From the IMG/VR virus record IMGVR_UViG_3300047281_000029, positions 1,013 through 65,012 of that record: a DNA stretch of 64,000 bases. One strand, given 5' to 3'. Below, one piece after another: positions 1-38,127 of this stretch. Within the stretch, counting starts at the first letter, position 1; the number at the start of each line of letters is the position of its first letter. Under the pieces are notes generated by a model that had not been told where the DNA came from, searched no databases, and was given only the letters and a program-made list of their open reading frames with translations. Position numbers and translations under genes: made by a program. Source of the DNA: a virus (taxonomy: Duplodnaviria > Caudoviricetes).

Positions 1-336
1 ATAATATTTTATGAATTTGATTACTGCGTTGTATGTTGCTTCTATTTTTGTTCTCTCGAATGTTTCTACAATTGGTAGTGGATATCGGTTGTCTACAATA
101 TTAACGGATGTCATTAGAATTTCAAAAACATATTGAGAAAGTCCTTCTTCATCCTCTATCTCTTCTATCTTATCCACTGCCTTTATTAACCAGTTCCAGT
201 CATAATTAAATGATAGTATGGTTAATGGTGACTCGTCTTTTTTATACCAATAGGTAGAGTTTGGATAGTCGGGATGAGGTTGTACATAACCTAAAAATTC
301 TGCTATCAGTTTGTTGTTATCTGCTATTGTGCACAT
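1..336 (-). CDS. Hypothetical Bacteroidota-phage protein, runs off the window edge (not in ORF track)
   Basis: Manual translation MCTIADNNKLIAEFLG...YDWNWLIKAVDKIEE...ATYNAVIKFIKYY; open to position 1. Confidence 0.7.
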   Translation of the reverse strand, partial: MCTIADNNKLIAEFLGYVQPHPDYPNSTYWYKKDESPLTILSFNYDWNWLIKAVDKIEEIEDEEGLSQYVFEILMTSVNIVDNRYPLPIVETFERTKIEATYNAVIKFIKYY

Positions 337-596
337 AGTTCCCAAGTGTTAAGTTGTTTTACGTTTTGTTTTGTTAGTCCTAGTTCCTTTACAATAAACT
401 TGGCTAGCTTCTTGTTGCCTATTGTACCTTCGTCTATCACGTTTGTTCCAATGTAACTTGCCACGTATGATGGCGGTGTGTTTAGTACTCTATTGCAAAA
501 CTTTACGTCTTGACCTAGGAAGAATTGTTTTCTGTTGTACTCTAGTGTCCAGTTACGACCGAACCCGTACTCTCCTTGTGTGATAATTACTCTCAT
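324..596 (-). CDS. Hypothetical early protein (likely start 596, MRVIITQ)
   Basis: AT-rich TTAATTAATAAC leader before ATG at 596; the longer start at 710 lies inside a tRNA-like element. Confidence 0.7.
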   Translation of the reverse strand: MRVIITQGEYGFGRNWTLEYNRKQFFLGQDVKFCNRVLNTPPSYVASYIGTNVIDEGTIGNKKLAKFIVKELGLTKQNVKQLNTWELCAQ

Positions 597-619
597 GTTA
601 TTAATTAATTTAAAGTTAG

Positions 620-760
620 TGAAGAGGGCAGGACTCGAACCTGCACTATGATTTTTATCGAATCTTAAAAACATATTTACAATGACTGGATTTTTTATAC
701 TTAACTCCATAAGTTAAATCATATTAAGTATTTAGCGTCTTCCTTTTCCGCCACCTCTTC
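620..760 (-). ncRNA. tRNA-like element (Leu-type D arm) with a ~90-nt insert in place of the anticodon/variable arms
   Basis: GAAGAGG/CCTCTTC 7-bp acceptor stem plus discriminator A; TG GCG GAAAAGGAAGA CGC D arm; GCAGG TTCGAGT CCTGC T arm. Confidence 0.75.
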
Positions 761-772
761 GTGTGCTAGCAG

Positions 773-991
773 TTACTCTGCTAGTCTTTGTATTGTTAGG
801 TTGGTGCTTGTTTTAATTCTCTCTAGCGTGTCCTCGTGCTTGTCCTCGAACCACTTCGGTACATCTACAACTACTAGGTAGTCGTTAACTATCGTGTGCT
901 CGAATGACTTCGGGATAAAGAACGGCTGACCACCATCGTCGATAGTCAGCGCGTTGTTAGATAGTTGTCTGCGGTATAGTTGTAGTGTCAT
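773..991 (-). CDS. Hypothetical early protein
   Basis: ORF; start MTLQ overlaps the upstream stop. Confidence 0.65.
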   Translation of the reverse strand: MTLQLYRRQLSNNALTIDDGGQPFFIPKSFEHTIVNDYLVVVDVPKWFEDKHEDTLERIKTSTNLTIQRLAE

Positions 992-1236
992 TTTATTTCC
1001 TCCCATTTTATAATTTTATTTGAGTCTGCTGGTATGTGGTCTCCTCCAAATCCGTGAGGCATTAACCTCCCGTTAAAACTTTGATATTCAGGTGGTATAG
1101 CAAAATTATTAAACAACTTATTATAAAAACCTCTCTTAGTTACTATCTCTTCTCGACTTTTACTTTGGTAATCTCCAAATCGTATTGTCTTTTTATACGT
1201 TATCATAACGTCTTCGTATGGATTAGGTAGTGTCAT
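988..1236 (-). CDS. Hypothetical early protein
   Basis: ORF translationally coupled to both neighbours. Confidence 0.65.
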   Translation of the reverse strand: MTLPNPYEDVMITYKKTIRFGDYQSKSREEIVTKRGFYNKLFNNFAIPPEYQSFNGRLMPHGFGGDHIPADSNKIIKWEEIK

Positions 1237-1559
1237 TATCTTATAAAGTATTGGTTATCAAACTTGTATCGTTGTCCGTTGAAGTTCTGTGCGTACACTA
1301 GCAGGTCGAACTGGTCTGTGCTTACCGCGATGCAGTTCTGTGTTAGTATCGTTGCCAGCTCTTCAATCTTCTTGATGAAGTGACTTGTCCTTGCGTATGG
1401 ACTTTCTAACTCGACAATCAGAGTCGGTTCGTGCTCGTCCTCGTATCGTCCGATGCCGAACTTATACGTGTCGATGGTGTAGTCCTCTCTTAACTTGTTG
1501 ATGATTGCCTCTTGGCTCAATGGGTTGTTGTTTAGTCCGATGTTTAAAATTGCTTTCAT
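1236..1559 (-). CDS. Hypothetical early protein
   Basis: ORF with TTAATTAATTATC leader. Confidence 0.7.
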   Translation of the reverse strand: MKAILNIGLNNNPLSQEAIINKLREDYTIDTYKFGIGRYEDEHEPTLIVELESPYARTSHFIKKIEELATILTQNCIAVSTDQFDLLVYAQNFNGQRYKFDNQYFIR

Positions 1560-1564
1560 GATAA

Positions 1565-1876
1565 TTAATTAAAGTGTTTATAGGTTACGTTTTTGTTGTC
1601 TCCGAATAGGAACTTGTTTATCTTGTTGTAGATTTTTGAGATGATTTTCGCCATAATGATTTGCCTTTTCTTAATATGTAATTTGATTGGTGCTTGTTTA
1701 GTCCGTGATGGCTTGCCCAGTTCGTTGCGCTTAGCCAGTTGTTTACGTAGTCTAGGTATAGACGTTCTATTTCGTTGTTGCTATGATACTGCATATGCTA
1801 GTAGATTAAAGATTACTATTACTAATACAATTGTTACCTGTAGGTATAGTCTACCTTGTTTTTGTGATTTTGTCAT
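1565..1876 (-). CDS. Three overlapping small ORFs: 1781-1876 (31 aa, hydrophobic), 1618-1794 (58 aa), 1565-1654 (29 aa)
   Basis: Manual translation: MTKSQKQGRLYLQVTIVLVIVIFNLLAYAVS; MQYHSNNEIERLYLDYVNNW...; MAKIISKIYNKINKFLFG...; the first has the conserved early leader. Confidence 0.55.
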
Positions 1877-1894
1877 GATGTTATTAATTAAATT

Positions 1895-1944
1895 GGTTAA
1901 GACGCCTCTCGGCGTTTCGATCATTTAGATCTCATCAGTTAACC
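1895..1944 (-). ncRNA. Hammerhead ribozyme, type I (HHR1)
   Basis: GGTTAA-CTGATGA-GATC TAAAT GATC-GAA-ACGCC GAGA GGCGT-C^TTAACC; complete core, GUC cleavage triplet. Confidence 0.93.
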
Positions 1945-2292
1945 TTAGTAATAGAAGATCTGAGGCAGGTTCTTCGTTTGCTCTCTTAGTATCTGTCTGT
2001 TTGAGTTGTTGTTTGCTATAGTTCCAGCGTCAACAAAGAATATTGCGTTATCATTAAAGCATCCTGTACTTAGTCCGCCGTTAGATAAACAACTAGAGTA
2101 GCTTAGCTTCTGACAGAATCTTATTCCGTCTGCTATATATATTGCGTACACATCTTCCGTGTCATCAAAGAACGTGCACTCATCTTTAGAGTATAACTCT
2201 ATTGTGCGTTTCCATGCGCTTGGATTGTAGTCGTTACGCTTGTGGTTGATTGCTTCTTCCTTTGTGATTTGTTTTGCTTGAATTGTTCTCAT
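1945..2292 (-). CDS. Hypothetical early protein flanked by HHR2 and HHR1
   Basis: 115-aa ORF with conserved AT-rich leader. Confidence 0.75.
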   Translation of the reverse strand: MRTIQAKQITKEEAINHKRNDYNPSAWKRTIELYSKDECTFFDDTEDVYAIYIADGIRFCQKLSYSSCLSNGGLSTGCFNDNAIFFVDAGTIANNNSNRQILREQTKNLPQIFYY

Positions 2293-2310
2293 GATAATAA
2301 GTAATTAAAT

Positions 2311-2365
2311 GTTATAGACACACCCGATGGATGTGTTTCGACTATTGAAGTCTCGTCAGTATAAC
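2311..2365 (-). ncRNA. Hammerhead ribozyme, type I (HHR2)
   Basis: GTTATA-CTGACGA-GACT TCAAT AGTC-GAA-ACACATCC ATC GGGTGTGT-C^TATAAC. Confidence 0.93.
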
Positions 2366-2592
2366 TATTTTAGTTTTGTTTTGATGAACCAGTAGGCTCC
2401 CTGTATTCCTTCATCGTCAAGTTTAAATGATGCTGACTCAGAGACGCTATCTTCTGCCCATCCTGTGAAGTAGTATTTTATATCTATCTTGTTTACGTGT
2501 CCATGATAGTCTACAAACCATGTTTTGAATGTTGCTTGGTTTTGTTCTACTGCTACTGCTACTAATTCGAATAAATCTTTTAATGTTTTCAT
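2365..2592 (-). CDS. Hypothetical early protein flanked by HHR3 and HHR2
   Basis: 75-aa ORF with conserved AT-rich leader. Confidence 0.75.
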   Translation of the reverse strand: MKTLKDLFELVAVAVEQNQATFKTWFVDYHGHVNKIDIKYYFTGWAEDSVSESASFKLDDEGIQGAYWFIKTKLK

Positions 2593-2605
2593 GATAATAA
2601 TTAAT

Positions 2606-2660
2606 TAACGTTTCGTCGTTCTGCGACTCATCAGCATGGATAACACATCCATGTACGTTA
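2606..2660 (-). ncRNA. Hammerhead ribozyme, type III (HHR3)
   Basis: TAACGT-A^CATGGAT GTGTT ATCCATG-CTGATGA-GTCG CAGAA CGAC-GAA-ACGTTA; GUA triplet. Confidence 0.93.
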
Positions 2661-2989
2661 CACGTCTATCCCTATTTAGGTAGCTCGTGGTCCTCGGTTT
2701 CTACGCCAGAGTGGACTTACCCTATTTTATCCTGTTTTATCAGTCCGCCACTTTTTACATCTGTGGTCTCGATGGTTTGTTCGTTAGTGCAGGTGATTGA
2801 TAGTTGATGTCTTTAGGATTGTAAAGCCTGTCTCGTCTCTTCCCTTTACTTTCACTGCCTCTCATTGGGTCAGGTAGGGATGAAGTTTCTAGTTTGCTAT
2901 CCTGCTGATTATCAAGCAGTTAGAAGCTAACTTGCTGGAAATCAATCACTTACAATAAAATTAAGAACGTGTCGCTCATTTGAACACTG

Positions 2990-3021
2990 CAATAGTACGG
3001 CGGGTATTTCAATCCTGCAAA
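2990..3021 (-). promoter_or_regulatory. Bacteroidota sigma-A-type promoter for the early transcript
   Basis: TTTG-N20-TACTATTG, one mismatch to the TTTG-N19-21-TAnnTTTG consensus. Confidence 0.6.
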
Positions 3022-3401
3022 TAAAAATTAAAAAAAAATCACTTTTGTATGCATTTTTATGACATTCTCAGTGAATTGATTATTTTGATGAGAATAATGC
3101 AACAGATTTGTGTTGATATTGAGGATTATGCAAGGAAATTGAACGAAGTTTGATTAACGTGTTGATTATCAGTGTTTTACGGATTGTATTTGCTTACTAT
3201 TGGATTTGATAGTGGTGGGATGGGGCTGGGGTTATTTCAAGTCTCTATATATCTGAGCACATATTTTTACGAATCGATGCATAAATAATCCGATAAACCC
3301 AATAACAACAAGGTCTGACAAGGTATTTTCGTTCATTTTAATTCACTCTAGGATTGATTACGATAATCTCATGACGCGGGAAGTCCCGTCATTGCTGGGT
3401 T

Positions 3402-3666
3402 TATGTCGAGTTTTAGAAATTTATGTCGATTTTATGTCGAGTTTTTTGAGTTAACTAACTGATAATCAATAATCTATGTCGATATGTCGATTTTTACTAT
3501 CCTAAATAGATTTAAAAAAAAATAATATATATATAAAAACGTATAGAGCCTATATAGGGATAACATTGACATTTCGACATAAATCAAGACAAAGTCTTTA
3601 TTGGTGTGGCCTAGCGCCATGACGCAACGAAAAAATCTTGTCATTTGTCGACATAAAACGACATAG
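3402..3666. repeat. Iteron-like TATGTCGA repeats around an AT-rich core (candidate ori or packaging signal)
   Basis: TATGTCGA at 3402, 3422, 3433, 3475, 3483; inverted copies at 3574, 3648 and partial 3659. Confidence 0.65.
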
Positions 3667-3739
3667 AACGTCATGGATTAGGCGCTTAAATAGATTAAGT
3701 TGTCATTTCGTATCTTTGCATAAACTAAAAATGTATATT

Positions 3740-3937
3740 ATGAAAGTATGTAGCAAGTGTAAAATTGAATTGGATTATGATTGTTTTAATGTAGACAAGA
3801 CTAAACTGGATGGACTACGTCCAGATTGTAACAAATGTAGAAAGCAAGTGACACAGAAGTATATTAGTACAGATGAATTCAAGGAAAGGAAAAAGGAATT
3901 GAATAGACTATATAGACTCGCTCATTCTGTCAAGTAA
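3740..3937 (+). CDS. Small zinc-ribbon protein resembling the N-terminus of phage HNH/EndoVII nucleases, possibly truncated
   Basis: MKVCSKCK...F.VDKTKLDGLRPDCNKC; promoter TATCTTTG at 3711. Confidence 0.55.
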   Translation: MKVCSKCKIELDYDCFNVDKTKLDGLRPDCNKCRKQVTQKYISTDEFKERKKELNRLYRLAHSVK

Positions 3938-4235
3938 AAAAAGGGAACTATAGGTACGTATACGTGCGCGTATAGTAGTACGTGTATGCGTGTGATATAG
4001 TAGACACCTGCGTGTATGGGTAGGGCAGTCCAGAAAAAGCCAAAAATTCTCGGCAAGTCCAGTGAAATCGGTACCCCACCCTTGATTTTTAAGTCGTTTT
4101 CGTTTTGGCATCCCATCCGCAATATCTATATATAACCCACACACCACACATATCTAACATGTTCAATAAAAACCGGCGTTCATTGTCAATGAACACACGA
4201 CACCTATATCTGACATTTTTTATTATATTTGCAGC

Positions 4236-4439
4236 ATGAGCAGATCAACAAAAAAACCAATAATGAAGCACAGCCCAAAAGGACGCAGGGCCCTTTACTG
4301 GAGAACAACCCGTCGTATAATCAACGAATCCATACGCCAACAAAAGGAGACGCTTCCGCTTGAGAAGGAGATCGTAAACGACTACGACTACAGCGACTAC
4401 AGATTTTTTTCTGATAGGCCTTGCGACACTAGAAAATAA
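4236..4439 (+). CDS. Hypothetical basic protein
   Basis: ORF directly after a TATATTTG promoter. Confidence 0.7.
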   Translation: MSRSTKKPIMKHSPKGRRALYWRTTRRIINESIRQQKETLPLEKEIVNDYDYSDYRFFSDRPCDTRK

Positions 4440-4455
4440 TTTATATATTTGCCCT

Positions 4456-4677
4456 ATGAAAGACGAGTACATTAAACTACGAACCCAAGCCGACATGTCG
4501 ATCAGTTGGTTCCATAAGTACTTTATGGACAAGACTGGAAAGAGCATCCACTTCAATCACTTCCACATGATATTCATGAACGGGGACATTCACGAGGTGA
4601 TGAATTACCTTGACAAGCAGTTCGACCTGACCTTAGTCATCGGTAAGAACGGTAACGTAATTAAAGTAGTAGAGTAG
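4456..4677 (+). CDS. Hypothetical protein
   Basis: ORF directly after a TATATTTG promoter. Confidence 0.7.
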   Translation: MKDEYIKLRTQADMSISWFHKYFMDKTGKSIHFNHFHMIFMNGDIHEVMNYLDKQFDLTLVIGKNGNVIKVVE

Positions 4678-4681
4678 AGGT

Positions 4682-4876
4682 ATGAGTTTATTTAAAATTA
4701 AAGGTTTAAGATATATTAAGGGATTTAAAAATAAGATACTTTATATTTTAAAGATACAGCCATTCTGTACAAAAGGAATAGAGAATTATAATTATAAGTG
4801 CATTAGATTTGAATTAAAAAACGGGTCTTGTATTTACTGCGGCGCTACTAAAGATAAATATAGCTGGCATAAATAA
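4682..4876 (+). CDS. Hypothetical protein (CxxC)
   Basis: ORF following the upstream gene by 4 nt. Confidence 0.5.
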   Translation: MSLFKIKGLRYIKGFKNKILYILKIQPFCTKGIENYNYKCIRFELKNGSCIYCGATKDKYSWHK

Positions 4877-4942
4877 CGTAGTTGTCCGACGGTTATGAGA
4901 CCTGCCTAGCGGTGCAGGTATAAAGAGGCAACGAACCGCAAC

Positions 4943-5022
4943 AGTCAGGTGGGCGTAATGAGGGATGGTCCCGAATCCATGAGATACTGGTTGCTTATCC
5001 GGTTCGAGTCCGGCCCTGACAC
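4943..5022 (+). ncRNA. Degenerate tRNA-like element
   Basis: GTCAGG/CCTGAC acceptor-like stem and CCGG TTCGAGT CCGG T arm; no canonical D or anticodon arm. Confidence 0.55.
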
Positions 5023-5175
5023 GATAAGCGTTTCGCGGTTAAACGGAAAAACACGCCGTGCGGAGTGACCTTCAGAGGTGGTCGATAAAGAACTCGAAAC
5101 GTGATAGTACATGAAGCTCATGTTATAAGTAACTATCGAAGTGCGACTTAGGACGACGCTGTCTAAGTGGAATAA

Positions 5176-5244
5176 TACCGGTTGGTGTAATTGGTAACAC
5201 GATGGTTGATCCATCAGATAAGGGTTCGAATCCCTTACCGGTAT
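5176..5244 (+). tRNA. tRNA-like gene (Gln-type body) with an aberrant 5-nt anticodon loop
   Basis: TACCGGT/ACCGGTA; GTGT AATTGGTA ACAC; GATGG TTGAT CCATC; AAGGG TTCGAAT CCCTT. Confidence 0.7.
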
Positions 5245-5369
5245 CAACAGCCCTGCTCGCGAGGGGATCGTAAAACACAACACACTTCTCGTAAGATCAG
5301 TGCGCTCATGTTGTTCTCATCGTATAGGAGATAGAGTTAGATTTCTCGACGTCGTTCAAAAAATCAACC

Positions 5370-5443
5370 GGTCCCGTAGCTCAGTTGGTTAGAGCGTCTG
5401 ACTCATAATCAGGATGTCCATGGTTCGAGCCCATGTGGGACCA
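5370..5443 (+). tRNA. tRNA with CAT anticodon, probably Ile2 (lysidine) rather than Met
   Basis: Full cloverleaf GGTCCCG...CT CAT AA...TGGGACC A; C4-G69 and C5-G68 are TilS determinants; no encoded CCA. Confidence 0.9.
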
Positions 5444-5502
5444 CAAACAGTACCTTCGACGCTACCCGTAGAACAGCGTCCCAGCGAAGGTCGTTTACTT
5501 AA

Positions 5503-5548
5503 GGCATCGGTTTAGGCTCGGGATGTCCCGGGCGCCGATGTTTTTTTT
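5503..5548 (+). terminator. Probable intrinsic terminator ending the ncRNA island
   Basis: GCATCGG...CCGATGT stem followed by a T8 tract. Confidence 0.55.
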
Positions 5549-5681
5549 GTCACATATAAAGTTGGCAAATACCGGCGATAATTGCCGTTATTATATAGGT
5601 GGGTAGAACAGGTGGGTAGATATGTTCATTTAAAATCAGCGTTCATTGTCAATGAACAGTAACAAAAAATAAAATTATATT

Positions 5682-5927
5682 ATGAAAAACGAGTTTATAC
5701 AAGTAGAGATAGAAGTTTACAATAGAGAACTTGCTGATCTTGGAGTTGAATCAAAGGAATCAATATGGGCTGATGCAGTCATAAACGAATCAGAAGTAGC
5801 TGCCATAAGAGCTTCACTAGATAATAATGATCGTTGTGTTATATACTTGAAAAATGGAGATAACTTTATAATTAGAATGCATCTTTATGAGGCGGTATGG
5901 CTATTTACTGGAAAAAAATTCGAATAG
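5682..5927 (+). CDS. Hypothetical protein
   Basis: 81-aa ORF, AT-rich leader. Confidence 0.65.
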   Translation: MKNEFIQVEIEVYNRELADLGVESKESIWADAVINESEVAAIRASLDNNDRCVIYLKNGDNFIIRMHLYEAVWLFTGKKFE

Positions 5928-6001
5928 AATGTTCGATATTCTAGACATTTCTAGATATTTTGTGTATAATAACAATCAAATAATTTTATTACCTTTGTAG
6001 C

Positions 6002-14202: not shown

Positions 14203-17200
14203 ATGAAATTTAAAAGCGATATAGAGGTCCAAGCGGGTCTGAAGGATTCTTCAGGCTCTAATGGATCATCAGGCCAAGTATTATCTTCAAATGGCACAAC
14301 GGTTAGTTGGGTTAACGCAGGTGGTGGCGTTGCTAGTGATGTTCAGAATTTAGTTAAAGCAGGTGTCGCTATAAATAAAGGCCAAGCTGTATATGTTACA
14401 AGTGCTGACGGAACAAATATAATCGTTGGATTAGCATCGAATACAACAGAGGCTACTTCATCAAAAACACTAGGTTTACTTGATGCAACAGTTGCTATAA
14501 ATGGAATGGCTAATGTAGTGCAGATAGGTAGATTAGAAGGTCTTAATACTTTAGCCGCAACTGTTGGTGATCCTGTTTGGTTAGGGGCTAATGGTAATCT
14601 TATTTATGGGTTAATAAATAAACCTTACGCACCATTACATTTAGTATTTATCGGGGTTGTTACAAGGGTAAATGCTAACAACGGTGAAATATTTGTAAAT
14701 GTACAGAATGGATTTGAGCTTAACGAAATACACGATGTAGACCTAAAGACTAATGTCCCTATTAACGGTGATATTCTTGGATATAACGGTACATTATGGG
14801 TAAATAAAACAATAGCAGGATGGCTAGGATATACTCCTGCAAATCAAGCAATAACTATAGCAACTACTGCTCCTTTATCAGGTGGTGGTGATTTATCAGC
14901 AAATAGAACATTATCTATAAGCCAAGCTGGAGCTGCGTCAAATGGTTATTTAAGCGCAAACGATTGGGGTATATTTAACGGTAAGCAAAACGCTTTAAAT
15001 GGAACTGGATTTGTAAAAATATCAGGAACTACTATAAGCTATGACAATAGCACGTATACACCAACTTCAAGAACAATTACAATTAACGGTGTTACTCAGG
15101 ATTTAAGTGCAAACCAAACATGGACAATCGCTAGTGGTGTAACATCTTTCAATACAAGAACAGGAGCTATTACATTAACATCAGGTGATCTAACTACAGC
15201 CTTAGGATACACCCCTGTAACCGATTCAAGAACAATTACAATTAATGGCGTAGCCCAAGATTTATCAGCTAATAGAAGCTGGACAGTAAGTTCAACTGTT
15301 ACTTCTGGATTTAGTTTAGTAAACCAAGGAGCAGCAAGTAACACTCCATCTTCTCCAACAGCAAATATGGGTGTATTTGTTGATACTTACGCTTTTATAG
15401 ATTTAGCTACAGCCCATCCTGACGGAGGTTGGATTGATTTTAGTAAGGCTAATGGAACTGATTATGCAGGAAGAATTAGATATAATAATACTAGTGATTA
15501 CCTTAGTATAGCTGCTGGATCTAATGAACAAGTTAGAATATTTAATTCAAATGCAGAGGCTTTAGGTTCTTTTAGATCCCCTATATTTTACGACTCAAAT
15601 AATACCGGATTTTATTTAGATCCATCTGGATCATCGGTACTTAACGGAACAGTTGTTATCAAAGGAAATGATAATCAATTAGCAATAGACGGCACTACAG
15701 GCGGATTGGCATCGGGGTTATTTTTTAGGGAGTCTGGAGTTGACAAATATGAACTTTACCATTATAGTGGTGAATTTAGATTTTATAACTATACAACAAA
15801 CCAACAAGAAATGAGCATTAATAATGCTAGTGGTTTTGTTACATCAAGAACTTCTTTTAGAGCTCCAATATTCTACGATTCAAATGATACTAGTTTTTAT
15901 ACAGACCCTGCGTCAACAAGTAATTTAAACAAATTAAGAATAACTTCTGCTGGTAATAGCGCTGGCGGTAATATATTAATGGGGCCTGCCGGAGAAGGTG
16001 TAGGTAAATGGTCTTATCTAACGGGCACACACTATAATGCAACTTCGCAATCGAAGGGTGTATCAATTATAGGACTATATGCGTCAGCGTCTGAAAATGC
16101 TATTTCAATTGGAGGTAATATTTATGAGGCTAACCCGGCTACTGAAATAAGATTTTATACCCATAATGCAATAACACATGATACAGGCGGTAGTGTAAGA
16201 ATGGTTATTAATAGTGCTGGTAATGTTGAGGCTAACGTTGATATGAGAGCTCCAATATTCTACGATTCAAATAATACTGGGTATTATGTTGATCCAGCTT
16301 CAACAAGTAATTTAAATGGGTTAACAGTCGCTAATACAATAACTGGTAATATATCTGGAAATGCTAATTCATTAGGTAGTATTGCTGCGGATAGATTTGT
16401 ATATGGAGATGGAGCAAATGGTAGATCAAAGGGAATGAGTAGTGGAAATGCTAATACATCCGATTCATCTAACTCATCTGGATTTTATTTTGGAACTAAT
16501 GTAACTGGTATGCCTGGATCTGACTGGTGGAACTGGCTTACGGTGGCTGGTAATTCATGGTCAGGAAGTGATGGGTATAGATGGCAAATGACTGGGTCAT
16601 TTTGGTCTGATGATTGGAGATTAAGAAGAATGACATCTGGTTCTTGGAGCAGTTGGGTGTCATTATTACATTCAGGGAATTATAATTCATATTCTCCAAC
16701 TCTAACAGGAGGTAATGCTTCTGGTACCTGGGGAATAAATATAACTGGTAATGCGGCAACAGCAACAACATCAACCAGTTCAAGTTATTCAAATATGGAT
16801 TATTTGATGAGTGATAGAGATTTTCCTAATGGGACGCTTATTCAAACATCTATTAATTACAACAACTCTGAAGGAGACGCCTTTATATTAGAAATAAAAG
16901 GGAATGCGTATGGCAACGGAATGCCAATGGACATTCAAATACAAGGTTATATATATGCAAATACAATAATAAATACAGGAGGATACTCTAATGGTTTTCA
17001 AGTTAGTAGTATTTCAGCTATAAGATTTGGCGGTAATCTTTGTTTCTGGTTTCCTTCTCAAGGATATTGGAATGGTTATACAGTAAAGGTATATAGTGCA
17101 TTTAGCGGAAGACAAGCAAACAAAGTAACAAGTATAAGTAATTCTGGTTTGCCAACAACAGATAAAATAGTTAATTTTACTACTGCCCAATCTTTACGAT

Positions 17201-30711: not shown

Positions 30712-33700
30712 ATGGCAAATATTGATGTAAATTTTATTGCCGGTAGAATGAACAAAGATTTTGACGAGCGTGTAGTTCCTGCTGGGGAGTACATTGACGC
30801 GTTAAATATCAGGGTAGGATCTACTGAGAACAATAGTGTAGGTGCTGTAGAAAATACCAAGGGTAATATAAAATTAACAAGCCTTCAATACAACGGAGTT
30901 CCTCTAGTAGGAGCTAGATGTATTGGTGCATACGAGGACGGATCTAACGAGACATTATACTGGCTTGTAACATCTGCCACTGTTGATATGGTGGTGTCTT
31001 TTAATACAGAAAAGAGCTTACTAAAGTACCACGTTGTATCTGAGGATGTACTTAACTTTGATCCTGAGTACTTAGTAACTGGTATTAACTTAATTGATAA
31101 CCTATTATTTTGGACGGACAACTTAAATCCGCCTAGAAAAATAAATATAAATAGAAACTACCCAGAACCAATAGGTGGGGTAGATCAAATTGATGAGAGT
31201 GATATATCTGTGATAGTTGCTCCTCCATCATCTGCACCTGAAATTTCACTATTACTTGTTCCTAGAGAAGAAAATTATATGACTAATAAGTTCATATCAT
31301 TTGCTTATAGATATAAGTATAAGGATGGAGAGTACAGTGCACTATCTCAATTTAGTGATATAGCATTTGAACCAGGTGGTTTTGGTCTTGATTACTCTAC
31401 ATTTGAGAATTCAGGAATGGAGAACATATTCAACTCTGTTAATGTAAAATTTAATACAGGAAGTGATAATGTTGTAGGTATAGATATCTGCTTTAAACTA
31501 TCAGACTCTAGCGTGATAAATGTTGTAGAAAAATACAATAAATCTCAAGAGGGATGGGCTGATAACAAAACTGAGCAGATTACATTTACAAATAAAAAAG
31601 TATATACTACCCTTACAGAGAGTGAACTTCTTCGTGTCTTTGACAACGTTCCTAGATTAGCTAAGGCACAAACTGTTATGGGTAACAGGTTAATGTACGG
31701 AAACTACGTCGACGGATATAATATTACAGATGAATATGGTAATCAAATAGATATTGATTACGATCTTGATTTAATGTCTGAGAACATTGGTTTTGTTGAG
31801 TTACCAGTTTCTCTAGATACTGGATCAAATTATACTATAGATCCTTCTAGTACTAAGACTATAAACGATGCTCAATTCAATATAGACTTGACAGGTGTGC
31901 CTCTAATTAGTGGATCATATCTTTCAATTAATATAACATTACAGCACGAATCATATTCTGGAGATGCTTCATATACAAATCCACCTAGAAATGATTTTGA
32001 ATACGACTTAGTATTTAATATTCAAAAGAACTATAGTAGCGTATATGAGTTAGCTACTAGTCAAGAATTTATAGATGCAATATCAACTCATAAAGTATAC
32101 GCTGACGCGTGCACTGGTACATCGGTAACAGATGCTTTTAACTGTCAGATAATTGCAAAATCAGGATGGACTGAAATAGGAACTGGTATAATTGATGCTA
32201 CAGGAAGTTTTACAATATCATCATCTTTAGGTTCTGATATAATTAGTATTCAAATTCCAGCTATAAAGTTTGGATTTGAAACATCTCCTGGTGTGTTTGT
32301 ATATGCTTATGAGTACCTTTCAAATACCAACACTTCCGCTAGTTTTTCAGCTATAGGTTCTAATCGGAGTCTTCATAGTAACAGAGATTACGAGGTAGCT
32401 ATTGTGTATATGGACGAATATAGTCGTAGCTCTACTGCCTTAGTAGATACTAATAATACAATTTTTGTTCCTCCATATAATTCAGATAAAAAGAATTACA
32501 TAAGAGCAAGCATAAAAAGTAAAGCTCCAAGCTGGGCTACTAAGTATAAGTTTGTAGTAAAACCATCTAAGAGTCAGTACCAAGTTGTATACTCTAATGT
32601 TTTCTTTCAAGAAGATTCTGGTTTTACTTGGTTTAAATTAGAAGGTGATAATAGAAGTAAGGTTCAAGAGGACTCAACTTTAATTGTTAAGGCCGACTCT
32701 AACGGAGTTATGAAGAGCTTAATAAAAACTAAGGTTCTTGCTCTAGAGGCTCAACCTAGAGACTTTATTAAGGATAATAAGAATTCAGCAGGTCAAGATA
32801 TTATAGAGCCAGCAGGGATGTATATGAGGCTTAAGGCTTCTAACTTTTCATCAGAATATACTGAGAATTCATTTATAGATGAAGGGGAGATAAGTGAAGC
32901 TGGAAGTTATGCTAATTTAAATTACCCTTGCTATATAGATAATCCATTATTTGGACAAGCTGGAGAATTACAATTTGCTCCTTACGATATACCTGCTGGA
33001 AGTTTAATAAACATTAACTTTACATTAACCAGAGATGCGGCCGGAGATAGTTGTGGTAATAGAACGTACGTGTTTAATAAATCATTTACAGCATCTCAAT
33101 ACTACACTAGTTTGTATAACTTTATAATAGGTGATCAAATCAATTTAGAAGCTGGAGATAGCACTGGAGGTGACGCTACAGTAAATAAGAACGACTTTAA
33201 TAAAAACTTAGTTAGTCCTTACACAGGAAATATTAATGCTATACCTGGTACTAACCAGTACGAATTCCAATATGATACGACAAATGGAAGATTATTCTTT
33301 GTAATTAAGAGTGGTACTCCTAACTGTAGTGGAAAGAAATCAAGAGTTATTTGCCATATACAGGTACAAAGAACCGAATCATTAATTGTATTCGAAACAG
33401 AAGCTGCCGATGCTAACGATGAGACTTATTTTGAAGGAAGTGAATCATTTGATATTATCAATGGTTATCATCAAGGTAACGTTACTAATCAGTCATCTGG
33501 AATTCCAGCTGTAGTTGATTTAAACTTTTTTGACTGCTTTTCGTTTGGTAATGGAGTTGAGAGTTATAAAATTGGAGACTCGTTAACTGGAGCTCCGTTT
33601 TATTTAGGAAGTAGGGTTACTGCTGTTTCTCAAGAAGAATTTAAAGAAGCACATAGATACGCTGGAATAACATACAGCGGAATATATAATGAAGAGACTA

Positions 33701-36700
33701 ATGTAAATAAATTAAATGAATTTAATTTAGCGTTAGCAAACTTTAAGGACTGTGAGAAATCATTTGGTCCAATTAATATACTTCACGGAAGAAAAACAGA
33801 CGTACTTACATTACAAGAGGATAAGATATCTTATGTATTAGCCGGTAAGAATTTACTTTCTGATGCAGCCGGAGGAGGAGCTATCACGTCTGTACCTGAG
33901 GTTCTTGGTACACAAATATCTAGAATTGAAGAGTTTGGTATTAGTAATGACGCTGCTAGTTTTGCTTCATGGGGAGAGGATATATACTTTACAGATACCA
34001 AAAGAACATCTGTTATTAATTTAAAGGGAGGCGCTTCTCAATCTGATAACTTAATTCCTATATCTAGACTAGGTATGAATGGATGGTTTAGAGATAACTT
34101 TAAAAATAAAATAAACTATCAAAAACTTGGTGGATATGATCCTTACTTAAAGGAGTATGTTTTATCTGTTAATGATGAAAAATTACCAGCACCTATTGAA
34201 ACATTTGACTGTGGATTCACTGTATCTCAGGATGGATCTAATGAAGAGTTAAAGTTTAATTTAGAGTACGGTAAGATTATAGGTGAGGCTTCTTTTGATT
34301 ATAACTTTGAAAGCGGATCAGCTCATATACTTGTACAGTATAATGGAGAAGTTGTTATAGATGATGAAATATCTGGATCTGGTTCTGTTTCATTTAATAA
34401 GGACATAATTAATCCTACATCCGCATTAGTTACTATAACTCCTTACTACGCTACATATAATATTTTATCAAACTGTGTTGAATCAGATCAGATAACTGTT
34501 ATTAGAATTGTAGTTAACTCACCATCAAATGAAGGACAGACTACTCATAATAATTATAACTGGTCACTTAACGGATATAATAGTCCTACAAATATTGACT
34601 TTGTATTATTAGAGTCTGACGGAGTATCTCTTTATCAGTCAATTACTGGTCCAGTATCTGTGGGTGTTATACCTTCATTTGGCAGTACAATTAAAATGCA
34701 GTCTGATAAATACATTACGGATACGTTTGATTTTGATCCTGCATCTAATTCTCTTAAATATTTAGTATCTGATACTTTATATACAGAATCAGACATAAAT
34801 ACACTAAGACCTTTATTAAATACAGCTACACCTATAATAAATCCATCTAGTGGTAAATTTGAATCTTCATTTGTTTATAACAATCCAAGTAAGCTTCAGT
34901 ACCTTTATTTAGTTTGGGATTTATTAAATGCTTACAGCGTTGGATTATGTTACAGCGATATAAGCGGAGAAGATGCTTGTATTACTTGTATACCAGTTAA
35001 CTGTGAAGTATCAGAATGGTCTGAGTGGTCTGATTGTATTGACGGAGTTCAAACAAGAACTAGAACAGTTGTTGTTCCTGCTGAAAATGGAGGTACTGAA
35101 TGTCCATCGTTAATAGATACAAGAATTTGCGGATATGATATAGATCTTTGTTACGACGATTTAAGCGCTCAGTTGGCTTGTAACTGCGGAGTACCAACTG
35201 TAAATTGCGAGGTTTCTGCATGGTCTGAATGGTCTGAATGTATCGATGGTACTCAGAGCAGAACTAGAACAATTGTAGTTCCACCTACAGGTGGTGGTAA
35301 TTCATGCCCGCCTTTAACAGAGACAAGGGACTGTGTTCCTGTAGTTAACTGTCAAGTATCTGAGTGGTCAGAATGGTCTACGTGCGATGACGGATATCAG
35401 TCTAGAACTAGAACTGTTATAGTTCCGCCATCTGGTGGAGGTCAAGCTTGTCCTGAATTATCAGAAACACGTACTTGCTCAAGCATAAACATAACAAACG
35501 CATCATGTAACAATGAAAACGGTAGTACTGTCACAAAAAGATTTACTATAGCTATTGGTAATGCTCCTGCAACATACACAATTGAAACCGGAACAGTTGT
35601 TAATCCAGCTGGTCTAGAGTATACTATATCTTCTGCTCCTGGTAATTCATTTATACAGATTGTATTTATGCCTGCTGTTACTTACGGTAATGAATTCTCT
35701 ATTGAATTATTATTGAAAAATTCAACAGGGGCTGTTGTAGGTACAAATGTTACACAAACTGTATACGGAAATTACGAAAGCTTTTTACCATCTTGTACCC
35801 CAGTAAACTGTGTAGTTTCTGAGTGGTCTGCTTGGTCAGATTGTGTTGATAATGTATCTACAAGAACACGTACTATTATTACTCAACCTAGCGGTGGAGG
35901 AGAAGCATGCCCTACTCTTACAGAGTCAAGGGATTGTGCAAACTGTGAAGTATCAGAATGGTCTGCTTGGTCTACATGTTCAGACGGACTTCAAACTAGA
36001 ACAAGAACAATTGTGACTGAACCATACAACGGAGGTACTGCATGTCCTACATTATCTGAAACAAGGACATGTTCAGGAATAGATATAACAGATACGATAT
36101 GTAATTCGGATGGAGGAAGTACTATTACTAAGAGATTTAGAATAGCATTAACTGACGCTCCTGCTACTTACACTATTGTGGCTGGCTCTGTAATTAATCC
36201 TGCGGGTCTTGAGTACTCTATAGTACCTACTCCTGGAGATGCTTACATACAGGTTGCATTTAAACCTGCACTTACTTATGGAAATGAGTTTTCTATTCAA
36301 TTACTATTAAAGAATTCTACAGGTGTTACTGTAGGTATGAGTGGTACAGAGACGTTATATGGTAACTACCAAAGCTTCTTACCATCATGCTTCCCTGTTA
36401 ACTGTGTAGTGTCTGAATGGTCTGAATGGTCTTCATGTGTTAATAACGTTTCTACAAGAACTAGAACTATTATTACTCCAGCTTCAGGCGGAGGAACACC
36501 TTGTCCAGTATTGACAGAATCAAGAGACTGTGCAAACTGTGAGGTTTCAGCTTGGTCAGATTGGTCAGCCTGTACTGATGGTTTAGAGACAAGAACAAGA
36601 ACGGTAATTACACAACCATACAATGGAGGTACAGCGTGCCCTATATTATCAGAGACAAGAACTTGTTCAACCATAGCTTTAACAACTACAATATGTAATA

Positions 36701-38127
36701 CTGATGGTGGTAGCACCATTACCAAAAGGTTTAGAATATCTATCGGTAACGCTCCTGCAACATATACTATTCAAGCTGGAACTGTAGTTAATCCTGCTGG
36801 ATTAGAGTACTCAATAGTGCCTACTCCTGGTGATTCTTATTTACAAGTTATATTTAGACCTTCAGTTACTTACGGTAGCGAGTTCTCTATAGAATTATTA
36901 TTGAAAAATTCTACTGGAATAACAGTTGGTACTAATGTTAGTCAAACAGTATATGGTAACTATCAGAGCTTCTTACCTTCTTGCTTTCCTGTAAACTGTG
37001 TGGTATCTGAATGGTCAGCATGGTCAGATTGTATTGGAGGAACTCAAAGTAGAACTAGAACAATTATTACTCAGCCTAGTGGAGGTGGAACTCCTTGTCC
37101 TCCTTTATCAGAGACAAGAGACTGCCCTGTAGATTGCGTTGTATCTGAATGGTCAGCGTGGTCAGATTGCGTTGGAGGAACTCAAAGTAGAACTCGTACA
37201 GTAATTACACCAGCTATTAATGGCGGAACTCCATGCCCAGTATTATCAGAGACAAGAGATTGTCCTGTAGACTGTGTTGTTTCAGAATGGTCGGCCTGGT
37301 CAGCATGTTCTGATGGTTTAGAGACTAGAACACGTACAGTAATTACTCCAGCTATTAACGGAGGTACTCCTTGTCCAGTATTGTCAGAAACTAGAACATG
37401 TTCAGGAATAACCCTAACAAGCACTATATGTAATACTGACGGTGGAAGTACTGTTACTAAAAGGTTTAGAATAGCATTAACTAATGCTCCTTCAACATAT
37501 ACTATTGTTGCTGGAACAGTAAACAACTACGCTGGACTAAACTACTCTATAGTAGCTACTCCTGGGGATTCTTACTTACAAGTAGAATTTAAACCTTCAA
37601 TTACGTATGGTAATGAGTTTTCTATTCAGTTATTGTTGAAAAACTCTACCGGTACAATAGTAGGTGAAAGCAGTCTTCAGACTGTTTATGGAAATTATCA
37701 AAGTTTCTTACCTGGTTGTTATCCTGTTAACTGTCAAGTTTCAGCTTGGTCTGAATGGTCAGCTTGTGTTGATGGCATAGAGACAAGAACAAGAACTATC
37801 ATAACTCATCCTTCAGGCGGAGGAGAGCCTTGCCCTCCTTTAACAGAAACTAGAGGATGTTATGTGCCACCAACAAGTTATCCTTTTACATTCTCTGTTA
37901 GTTCAAGTTATGATTTCTTTGAATCTTGTCTTTTCTATGATATGGGATTAACTTTATGGGGAGCAAGTGATAGCTTATCTTATATGATGAGTAACGGACT
38001 TGCTTTATATGAAGATCAAAACTTAACAATTCCTTTTGATGGACAAAATAAATTTAGAAGTACTGGTGATGGGTTTACTTGGTCGATAGATTCAAACGGA
38101 ATAATTACAGGATTAGAAAATTGTTAA
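30712..38127 (+). CDS. Tail stabilisation (muzzle/nozzle-like) protein with a C-terminal array of TSP1 repeats
   Basis: GRMNKDFDER.VP.GEYIDALNI, LLFWTDNLNPPRKIN, GNRLMYGNY motifs; repeats in the last ~1050 aa. Confidence 0.8.
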   Translation: MANIDVNFIAGRMNKDFDERVVPAGEYIDALNIRVGSTENNSVGAVENTKGNIKLTSLQYNGVPLVGARCIGAYEDGSNETLYWLVTSATVDMVVSFNTEKSLLKYHVVSEDVLNFDPEYLVTGINLIDNLLFWTDNLNPPRKININRNYPEPIGGVDQIDESDISVIVAPPSSAPEISLLLVPREENYMTNKFISFAYRYKYKDGEYSALSQFSDIAFEPGGFGLDYSTFENSGMENIFNSVNVKFNTGSDNVVGIDICFKLSDSSVINVVEKYNKSQEGWADNKTEQITFTNKKVYTTLTESELLRVFDNVPRLAKAQTVMGNRLMYGNYVDGYNITDEYGNQIDIDYDLDLMSENIGFVELPVSLDTGSNYTIDPSSTKTINDAQFNIDLTGVPLISGSYLSINITLQHESYSGDASYTNPPRNDFEYDLVFNIQKNYSSVYELATSQEFIDAISTHKVYADACTGTSVTDAFNCQIIAKSGWTEIGTGIIDATGSFTISSSLGSDIISIQIPAIKFGFETSPGVFVYAYEYLSNTNTSASFSAIGSNRSLHSNRDYEVAIVYMDEYSRSSTALVDTNNTIFVPPYNSDKKNYIRASIKSKAPSWATKYKFVVKPSKSQYQVVYSNVFFQEDSGFTWFKLEGDNRSKVQEDSTLIVKADSNGVMKSLIKTKVLALEAQPRDFIKDNKNSAGQDIIEPAGMYMRLKASNFSSEYTENSFIDEGEISEAGSYANLNYPCYIDNPLFGQAGELQFAPYDIPAGSLININFTLTRDAAGDSCGNRTYVFNKSFTASQYYTSLYNFIIGDQINLEAGDSTGGDATVNKNDFNKNLVSPYTGNINAIPGTNQYEFQYDTTNGRLFFVIKSGTPNCSGKKSRVICHIQVQRTESLIVFETEAADANDETYFEGSESFDIINGYHQGNVTNQSSGIPAVVDLNFFDCFSFGNGVESYKIGDSLTGAPFYLGSRVTAVSQEEFKEAHRYAGITYSGIYNEETNVNKLNEFNLALANFKDCEKSFGPINILHGRKTDVLTLQEDKISYVLAGKNLLSDAAGGGAITSVPEVLGTQISRIEEFGISNDAASFASWGEDIYFTDTKRTSVINLKGGASQSDNLIPISRLGMNGWFRDNFKNKINYQKLGGYDPYLKEYVLSVNDEKLPAPIETFDCGFTVSQDGSNEELKFNLEYGKIIGEASFDYNFESGSAHILVQYNGEVVIDDEISGSGSVSFNKDIINPTSALVTITPYYATYNILSNCVESDQITVIRIVVNSPSNEGQTTHNNYNWSLNGYNSPTNIDFVLLESDGVSLYQSITGPVSVGVIPSFGSTIKMQSDKYITDTFDFDPASNSLKYLVSDTLYTESDINTLRPLLNTATPIINPSSGKFESSFVYNNPSKLQYLYLVWDLLNAYSVGLCYSDISGEDACITCIPVNCEVSEWSEWSDCIDGVQTRTRTVVVPAENGGTECPSLIDTRICGYDIDLCYDDLSAQLACNCGVPTVNCEVSAWSEWSECIDGTQSRTRTIVVPPTGGGNSCPPLTETRDCVPVVNCQVSEWSEWSTCDDGYQSRTRTVIVPPSGGGQACPELSETRTCSSINITNASCNNENGSTVTKRFTIAIGNAPATYTIETGTVVNPAGLEYTISSAPGNSFIQIVFMPAVTYGNEFSIELLLKNSTGAVVGTNVTQTVYGNYESFLPSCTPVNCVVSEWSAWSDCVDNVSTRTRTIITQPSGGGEACPTLTESRDCANCEVSEWSAWSTCSDGLQTRTRTIVTEPYNGGTACPTLSETRTCSGIDITDTICNSDGGSTITKRFRIALTDAPATYTIVAGSVINPAGLEYSIVPTPGDAYIQVAFKPALTYGNEFSIQLLLKNSTGVTVGMSGTETLYGNYQSFLPSCFPVNCVVSEWSEWSSCVNNVSTRTRTIITPASGGGTPCPVLTESRDCANCEVSAWSDWSACTDGLETRTRTVITQPYNGGTACPILSETRTCSTIALTTTICNTDGGSTITKRFRISIGNAPATYTIQAGTVVNPAGLEYSIVPTPGDSYLQVIFRPSVTYGSEFSIELLLKNSTGITVGTNVSQTVYGNYQSFLPSCFPVNCVVSEWSAWSDCIGGTQSRTRTIITQPSGGGTPCPPLSETRDCPVDCVVSEWSAWSDCVGGTQSRTRTVITPAINGGTPCPVLSETRDCPVDCVVSEWSAWSACSDGLETRTRTVITPAINGGTPCPVLSETRTCSGITLTSTICNTDGGSTVTKRFRIALTNAPSTYTIVAGTVNNYAGLNYSIVATPGDSYLQVEFKPSITYGNEFSIQLLLKNSTGTIVGESSLQTVYGNYQSFLPGCYPVNCQVSAWSEWSACVDGIETRTRTIITHPSGGGEPCPPLTETRGCYVPPTSYPFTFSVSSSYDFFESCLFYDMGLTLWGASDSLSYMMSNGLALYEDQNLTIPFDGQNKFRSTGDGFTWSIDSNGIITGLENC
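35002..37860 (+). repeat. 11 thrombospondin type-1 (spondin-like) repeats interleaved with 4 copies of a ~105-aa domain
   Basis: C-x-VSxWSxWSxC...RTRT...P..GG..CP.L.E.R.C counted 11 times. Confidence 0.9.

Follow-up and report, generated by a model that had tools for sequence, protein, structure and literature searches.

Hammerhead ribozyme motifs flank variable small early genes in a phage lineage related to podophages of Flavobacteriia

The virus record IMGVR_UViG_3300047281_000029 (65,012 bp, rated complete by CheckV) is a genome of the Caudoviricetes, and its bases 1013-65012 form the stretch of 64,000 nucleotides (nt) analysed here, referred to below as the window. A leftward operon of small early genes runs on the minus strand from about position 3000 down to position 1, and hammerhead motifs on the same strand occupy its first three intergenic gaps. 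The first gene, ORF2, is an open reading frame (ORF) of 75 amino acids (aa) at 2592..2365 in the ORF list; it is followed by ORF1 (115 aa, 2292..1945), which sits in a variable slot, and by a gene for a 31-aa hydrophobic peptide (1781..1876, minus strand), which has homologues in the related loci L017, L052 and L080. The motif HH-C (2606-2660) precedes ORF2, HH-B (2311-2365) separates ORF2 from ORF1, and HH-A (1895-1944) lies between ORF1 and the peptide gene. ORF2 and ORF1 thus each lie between two hammerheads, as a first-pass annotation of this DNA had proposed, and the cores, the helices and the minus-strand coordinates all bear this out.

HH-C is a type III hammerhead, in which stem III is open, with the core CUGAUGA at 2634-2628 and three helices. 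HH-B and HH-A are of type I (stem I open) and combine the cores CUGACGA and CUGAUGA, respectively, with three helices each. All three elements contain the CUGANGA and GAAA core segments and a UH cleavage triplet in which H is not G. Cleavage is predicted after GUA at 2654|2653 in HH-C, with the ribozyme body (2653-2606) in the 5' untranslated region (UTR) of the first early gene, and after GUC at 2317|2316 in HH-B and at 1901|1900 in HH-A. The predicted products are an RNA of 337 nt carrying the 75-aa ORF (2653..2317) and one of 416 nt carrying the 115-aa ORF (2316..1901), exactly the sizes expected from the earlier annotation. The G of the ORF2 stop TAG also belongs to stem I of HH-B, and the TAA stop of ORF1 directly adjoins stem I of HH-A. 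Both type I cuts lie 24 nt ahead of the next ATG, which past HH-A is that of the 31-aa peptide gene, the first gene of the remaining polycistronic RNA.

Chance is not an explanation for the three hammerheads. In the complete genome of 65,012 bp the strict core pattern has three matches, all of them at this locus and on one strand, and the reversed-pattern control gave none. A detector that requires the core and all three helices found the three elements and no others in the 64-kb window, against three in total in 40 shuffled windows (0.075 per window). When the window was scanned with Rfam, only two tRNAs and no hammerhead reached the gathering score. HH-A aligned to HH9 (RF02275) with 27.1 bits (E 3.7e-4, E-value mode; gathering cut-off 52), HH-B to RAGATH-1-hammerhead (RF03152) with 32.7 bits (E 0.0038; cut-off 56.3) and HH-C to Hammerhead_3 (RF00008) with 19.7 bits (E 0.47; cut-off 48.5). 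All three would therefore escape routine annotation; we class them as hammerheads but assign them to none of the three families.

The same elements were found in 65 related viral or metagenome loci and in cultured Flavobacterium and Cellulophaga phages; a pattern that fixed only the core and one stem I strand retrieved 63 further viral loci. Removal of duplicate loci, and of type III calls with a stem I shorter than 5 bp, left a set of unique ribozymes, 97 of type I and 15 of type III, among which the catalytic core is invariant and position 7 is U, C or A. Because the detector demands short helices, the sequences that it chooses lean towards pairing, and the unbiased test is the one by pattern only: all three helices were present in 57 of 58 unique pattern-only matches from viral contigs, compared with a mean of 0.005 of 58 after shuffling of the interiors. 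RNAalifold returned the hammerhead fold from the sequences alone. It identified compensatory changes in 13 of 17 predicted pairs in the alignment of the 15 type III elements and in 11 of 15 pairs for type I, the latter from the 40 shorter of the 97 unique sequences, picked so that MAFFT could align stem III.

Comparison of direct orthologues gave the same picture. HH-C has counterparts in L004/L017, L005, L052, L079 and the cultured phage NC_062743.1, and HH-B in L017 and L079, while in the HH-A orthologues of L017 and L052 stem III is maintained through changes on both strands. ORF2 has four relatives in IMG/VR; in L004 (99% identity) and L005 (60%) a type III hammerhead precedes the homologue and a type I follows it, again with helices maintained by changes on both strands. 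By these comparative signs the three elements are genuine hammerhead ribozymes, and we infer that they cleave in vivo.

Among cultured phages, Flavobacterium phage vB_FspP_elemoC_14-1A (NC_062743.1) has a leftward operon of small genes that opens with gp61. An unannotated type III hammerhead lies shortly before gp61, and a type I follows about 2 kb further downstream, beneath the short opposite-strand coding sequence gp68. This gp68 (16937-17044, plus strand), a hypothetical coding sequence of 35 aa, exactly overlies the unannotated type I and is probably spurious. Cellulophaga phage phi18:3 has one unannotated type I. In L026, L043 and L071 a T-arm-like hairpin stands before the type III element; ARAGORN did not call it a tRNA.

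The ribozymes of this lineage follow a simple positional layout, with a type III in the 5' UTR of the first gene and type I elements next to stop codons. Within each locus they share the strand of the genes, and up to six or seven occur in a few kb. The stop codon is always upstream of the cut: for 84 of the 97 type I elements an ORF stop falls in the range -23..+20 nt relative to stem I, and for 68 of those 84 it falls at -5..+6. An ATG-started ORF begins 17-119 nt past the cut in 78 of the 97, with 71 starts at 17-44 nt and 49 at 23-30 nt. A stop before the cut and about 24 nt to the next ATG would be expected if the products are translated. The 74 unique fragments between successive cuts have a median length of 565 nt; counted as ATG-started frames of at least 30 aa, ORFs are absent from 7 of them, while 30 hold one, 13 hold two, 15 hold three and 9 hold four or more. 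Single-gene units are thus the commonest kind, though not universal. A type III element heads the array in eleven loci (the window, L005, L015, L017, L022, L039, L051, L052, L057, L074 and L079) and is likewise the first of the array in NC_062743.1; in L039 the 98-nt gap from type III to the next ribozyme holds no ORF. The topology of hammerheads implies that, once cut, a type III remains attached to the downstream RNA at its 5' end and a type I to the upstream RNA at its 3' end; each ribozyme body would therefore join a message, and none the discarded leader.

Two further features of the arrays were recorded. In L030 (cuts on the minus strand at 3863 and 3981) and in L037 (7847-7965) an ORF-free stretch of 118 nt separates a type I from a type III. 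The 118-nt piece would be a short RNA without a ribozyme body, or the gap may mark where one transcription unit stops and another begins, as a terminator-promoter gap. A pseudoknot between loop II of type I and the 25-nt flanks was rejected, the flank match being no better than for permuted loops (pairing upstream 0.344 against 0.298, downstream 0.266 against 0.31).

The genes between the ribozymes differ from one relative to the next. The window, L017 (on the same contig as L004), L052 and L079/L080 share an early-gene core at 74-97% identity, which includes the 31-aa hydrophobic peptide and proteins of 52-58, 107, 72 and 90 aa, and the stretch from the leader to the 31-aa gene varies. Before that gene the window has the order type III, ORF2, type I, ORF1, type I. 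L079/L080 repeat this order and continue with an 83-aa ORF, another type I and two more ORFs. In L017 the type III, ORF2 and type I are followed by unrelated ORFs of 56 and 96 aa, in the slot held by ORF1 in the window, and then by a type I; in L052 a type III, a different first ORF and a type I precede three other ORFs. Similarity between the window and L017 ends right after stem I of HH-B and returns at stem I of HH-A. Among RNA-library contigs, one joins the body of HH-C directly to the 56-aa ORF of L017, and a second has the start of ORF1 preceded by a different hammerhead. The ribozymes are conserved and the genes between them are not, and the ribozymes therefore appear to mark joints at which related phages exchange early genes. 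The suggestion of mobile cassettes made in the first-pass annotation, which called for a comparison of the ORFs that relatives keep in the same slots, is supported at the level of DNA: different ORFs occur between the same ribozymes, and homology breaks at the ribozyme edges. A separate, integron-like array was seen in L032 (11853-13724), where four consecutive single-ORF cassettes encode unrelated proteins of 142, 94, 123 and 128 aa with type I ribozymes between them and the same stem I in three of the four adjacent pairs.

The two flanked proteins gave no Pfam or PHROG match, in line with their earlier description as ORFs of unknown function. ORF2 belongs with 73 homologous clusters and ORF1 with 12, none informatively named; the ORF1 alignment has 42 invariant columns, and with the single protein as query it found no relatives in viral contigs. 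Both are, judged by this conservation, real proteins known from metagenomes only. Structure prediction, which had been recommended for both, was productive for one. AlphaFold modelled ORF2 with a mean confidence (pLDDT) of 92.8 as an alpha-beta-beta-beta-alpha fold, whose top structural match is the dGTPase inhibitor Gp1.2 of T7 (Z 7.0, root-mean-square deviation 3.9 over 68 residues, 7% identity); as Z lies in the tool's range for unrelated folds, the modelled likeness is a lead only, and Foldseek returned nothing for ORF2 at E <= 0.001. Assignments of ORF2 as similar to a double-stranded-RNA-binding domain or to a hibernation factor were rejected, their Z values of 4-5 being within the noise of the tool. 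The ORF1 model (pLDDT 71.8) had no informative match, with nothing from Foldseek at E <= 0.001 and VIA-align Z values of at most 3.7.

Upstream of the first gene, the untranslated leader that HH-C would remove extends over 2661..3019 on the minus strand. RNA-library contigs of three studies cover 2679-3019, at depths of 14.8, 13.9 and 3.3. The minus strand had no sigma-70-type promoter-like site at 2654-3460 and no Bacteroidota-type -7 motif TAnnTTTG at 2600-3750. A structured leader RNA was rejected as well, as the minus strand of 2654-3000 folds no more stably than its shuffles (z 0.78). The divergent intergenic region 2655-3637, about 980 nt, is unusually long for a phage. It contains a 36-aa ORF (2865..2755, minus strand) that is kept in L017, but only at near-identical DNA.

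The phage is about 65 kb in size and of a lytic-type lineage related to podophages of Flavobacteriia. Its recognisable genes include those for GroEL/GroES, for ThyX and MazG and for a BT4734-like primase, as well as one with a crAss-type muzzle domain. For the large terminase, the nearest cultured relatives are the Flavobacterium phages of the elemo group (46% identity), with 35-37.5% to Cellulophaga phages, 33% to a Tenacibaculum phage and 74% to an uncultured spring phage; a near-identity nucleotide search of window 1-6000 against cultured phages gave zero matches. The phage DNA occurs in sequencing runs of metagenomes from freshwater or aquatic sources. Leaders within the window are AU-rich and carry no Shine-Dalgarno motif, which fits a Bacteroidota host. 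The DFDxD motif of virion RNA polymerases is absent from the three largest proteins. A 2471-aa virion protein (30712-38127) contains thrombospondin type 1 repeats of the spondin-like kind, 11 in number (Pfam E 4.7e-137); structural proteins of phages do not usually have this domain. At 5176-5245 ARAGORN called a 70-nt tRNA-Ser (anticodon UGA) of doubtful identity: bacterial tRNA-Ser is expected to have a long variable arm, which the call lacks, and the Rfam alignment (50.9 bits) has a shortened anticodon region.

The reading that we favour, and consider fairly probable, is that the hammerheads process the early transcript without the help of a protein and insulate early-gene modules that can be swapped. 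The ribozymes would cut the transcript of the early operon co-transcriptionally, with no protein needed. HH-C would remove the long variable 5' leader and remain as a folded structure at the start of the ORF2 message, and HH-B and HH-A would cut just past the stops of ORF2 and ORF1. At the 3' end of each upstream message there would then be a compactly folded ribozyme and a 2',3'-cyclic phosphate, and each downstream message would start from a 5'-OH, with 24 nt of AU-rich leader ahead of the ATG. The roughly 24 nt ahead of the next ATG would give room for ribosome binding, and termination would be normal as the stop precedes the cut. The outcome would be discrete, translatable single-gene mRNAs whose ends and expression are independent of their neighbours, and units insulated in this way should tolerate replacement of a neighbour, in keeping with the observed swaps. 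Stabilised ends, one of the consequences envisaged in the first-pass annotation, are plausible, each product carrying a compact ribozyme body at one end. In vivo cleavage, effects on stability or translation and the benefit of insulation are inferred. As reported by Perreault et al. (2011, PLoS Comput Biol; PMC3088659), triple arrangements comparable to that of the window cleave in vitro, and the one from Agrobacterium tumefaciens does so in E. coli as well.

Several points weigh against processing and insulation. Cleavage was not observed, and the RNA data are assembled contigs only: four metatranscriptome runs gave two or three contigs each for window 1-4000, with patchy cover, and assembled contigs cannot show RNA ends. 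Any gain in stability or translation is hypothetical. All three motifs have sub-gathering Rfam scores, and the set of loci was seeded with one stem I pattern, so that its statistics describe one hammerhead lineage. In L026, L043, L071, L030, L037 and L062 a type I precedes the type III, and the adjacency of stop codons could be explained by plain gene packing. A fourth type I ribozyme stands before the 107-aa gene in L017 (11698-11752) and L052 (2914-2968) and is cleanly absent from the window (1560-1617) and L080, where the junction is otherwise conserved; a single ribozyme is thus acquired or dropped as a unit of about 70 nt. In L006 and L007, moreover, the ORF2 homologues are first genes with no hammerhead nearby, and the ribozymes would therefore be dispensable for the genes that they flank; the intergenic gaps of these two loci hold plain GC hairpins.

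The gene swaps also lend themselves to a role at the DNA level, with units of ribozyme plus leader acting as linkers or small mobile modules for the shuffling of early genes and cleavage being secondary or a relic. Such a role would account for homology between the window and L017 that breaks exactly at ribozyme edges, for at least four gene orders in close relatives and two more in RNA-library contigs, for the clean presence or absence of one ribozyme at a conserved junction, and for the near-identical ribozymes between unrelated ORFs in L032. We nevertheless regard it as unlikely, since a pure linker needs neither an unchanged catalytic core nor compensatory changes in three helices, and Pfam identified no integrase or recombinase specific to these sites among the 74 ORFs. 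Any conserved intergenic element would recombine alike, so that the shuffling is better viewed as a consequence of having conserved linkers among fast-evolving genes than as a rival. It is distinctly improbable that cleavage is regulated, with a ribosome at the adjacent stop codon or the ionic conditions tuning the dose or timing of early proteins. From the general size of the ribosome footprint, a terminating ribosome would be expected to unfold stem I and the core, and the 68 of 84 stops at -5..+6 of stem I suit this idea; they are equally expected from tight packing, however, no sensor domain or extra conserved element was found, and the test of loop II-flank pairing was negative. Regulated cleavage of phage hammerheads is also raised by Perreault et al. 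(PMC3088659).

The first-pass annotation had further proposed circular mRNAs. On such a reading a host RtcB-type ligase, or reversal of the hammerhead reaction, would close the 337- and 416-nt products into circles that resist exonucleases and are translated. Ends with a 5'-OH and a 2',3'-cyclic phosphate are the substrate of RtcB, so the end chemistry matches, and RtcB is present in Bacteroides thetaiotaomicron, which served as a control genome. For the 337-nt product, both the minimum-free-energy and the centroid structure pair nt 2-12 with nt 317-327 and leave a 3' tail of 10 nt. Among 13 fragments that run from a type III to a type I, cognate end pairing ranks 1, 2 and 3 in the window, L079 and L017 and 1 or 2 in L039, L057 and L030, but only 7-10 in L005, L015, L022, L051, L052, L062 and L074. 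Stem I of HH-C and stem III of HH-B have 5' arms with 10-11 nt of mutual complementarity, from which a terminal panhandle is predicted on the ORF2 RNA, in competition with helices of both ribozymes; L017 and L079 keep it, whereas L005 and L052 do not. The best duplexes that the first 25 nt of the 74 fragments form with the last 45 nt are on average no better than those with mismatched partners (-6.72 against -6.41 kcal/mol, p 0.56). Of 56 adjacent type I pairs, 17 bound a fragment whose 5' end could restore all 6 bp of stem I together with the ribozyme at its 3' end (30%; 12.7% in the control with ribozymes from different loci), including examples from the four unrelated single-ORF cassettes of L032, the best candidate for ends able to rebuild a ribozyme on circularisation. 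The ends are, however, incompatible in 39 of the 56 pairs, and the 416-nt RNA could re-form only one of six stem I pairs and has unpaired ends in its predicted fold. A stem I of 6 bp, present in 50 of 56 ribozymes, would favour product release over religation. The earlier statement that no ligase or reverse transcriptase is visible holds: a six-frame search of the genome did not find RtcB (PF01139), and Pfam scans of the 74 ORFs gave no RNA ligase, polynucleotide kinase, 2H phosphoesterase or reverse transcriptase. No joints occurred among the contigs of the four RNA runs, whose cover is too thin to weigh either way. According to PMC3088659, circular or spliced products were sought and none found (data not shown there), and a literature search conducted mostly without subscription journals had no paper on circles from phage hammerheads among the matches listed. 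Circular mRNA is thus not supported and very improbable, with a higher likelihood for the first cassette than for the second; that at least the 337-nt ORF2 RNA, and cassettes such as those of L032, are circular in the infected cell has a slim chance. The anatomy described in the first-pass annotation stands, as does its idea of single-gene RNAs bounded by ribozymes.

Protein-free processing with insulation of early-gene modules bears on a question that has been open since at least 2011 and that this locus makes easier to test. A 2019 review still describes the role of bacterial and phage hammerheads as unresolved (PMC6765202). Established here are the motifs with their conservation and covariation, the positional layout of the arrays and the swapping of cassettes; they define a widespread lineage of compact hammerheads, missed by standard Rfam annotation, with a simple layout and with natural gene swaps bounded by ribozymes. 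The lineage is tied to cultured phage-host pairs through the Flavobacterium phage elemo group and Cellulophaga phage phi18:3. If circles were nonetheless formed, these would be natural translatable circular mRNAs from ribozyme-bounded gene slots.

The closest precedent is that of Perreault et al., who in 2011 published both the arrangement and the idea of circles (PMC3088659). In their account, prophage hammerheads are clustered around single genes or short blocks, processing into single-gene mRNAs is proposed, circles are considered and the purpose is left unknown. The order type III, ORF2, type I, ORF1, type I, with varying gene identities, is this clustered arrangement: as in the window, the prophage arrays comprise several co-oriented hammerheads, and the identities of the flanked genes are not constant. 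Their examples come from prophages of Clostridium, Azorhizobium and Agrobacterium, whereas the present phage is of a lytic type near phages of Flavobacteriia, and its lineage is distinguished from those arrays by compact type I elements with a 6-bp stem I that fall below Rfam thresholds. New here are the layout, the breadth of the lineage, the edge-bounded swaps and the cultured systems, part of which the figures or supplements of PMC3088659 may already contain. Among the matches listed in the literature search, hammerheads were not linked to Flavobacterium, Cellulophaga or crAss-like phages.

Other systems resemble the locus in part. The window shares with retrozymes, viroids and Tornado constructs an RNA freed by two ribozymes, with 5'-OH and 2',3'-cyclic phosphate ends. 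In those systems the ends of the excised RNA meet in a rebuilt ribozyme or a designed stem; in contrast, the ends of the 416-nt RNA rebuild nothing, and those of the 337-nt RNA form only a lineage-specific predicted panhandle. Unlike retrozymes, moreover, the window has neither repeats nor a reverse transcriptase, and it offers no evidence of circles. T4-type promoter-early stem-loops and integron arrays are likewise short intergenic elements between exchanged small genes, but the linker in the window is a catalytic RNA motif; Pfam detected no integrase family in the 74 ORFs, and no attC-like site was found. For insulation, the nearest counterpart is RiboJ, which Lou et al. reportedly engineered in 2012 as a type III hammerhead insulator for the 5' UTR, with an added hairpin. 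Like HH-C, RiboJ lies in the 5' UTR, trims the promoter-derived leader and stays on the mRNA, and it makes expression independent of the upstream context; HH-C has the same geometry, from the cut at 2654|2653 through the body to the ATG at 2592, as does its counterpart in NC_062743.1. Insulation by HH-C is a functional analogy only. If it is true, phages have reached the ribozyme-insulator design of synthetic biology, with the difference that RiboJ is engineered with its hairpin and HH-C is natural and combined with a type I ribozyme after each cassette.

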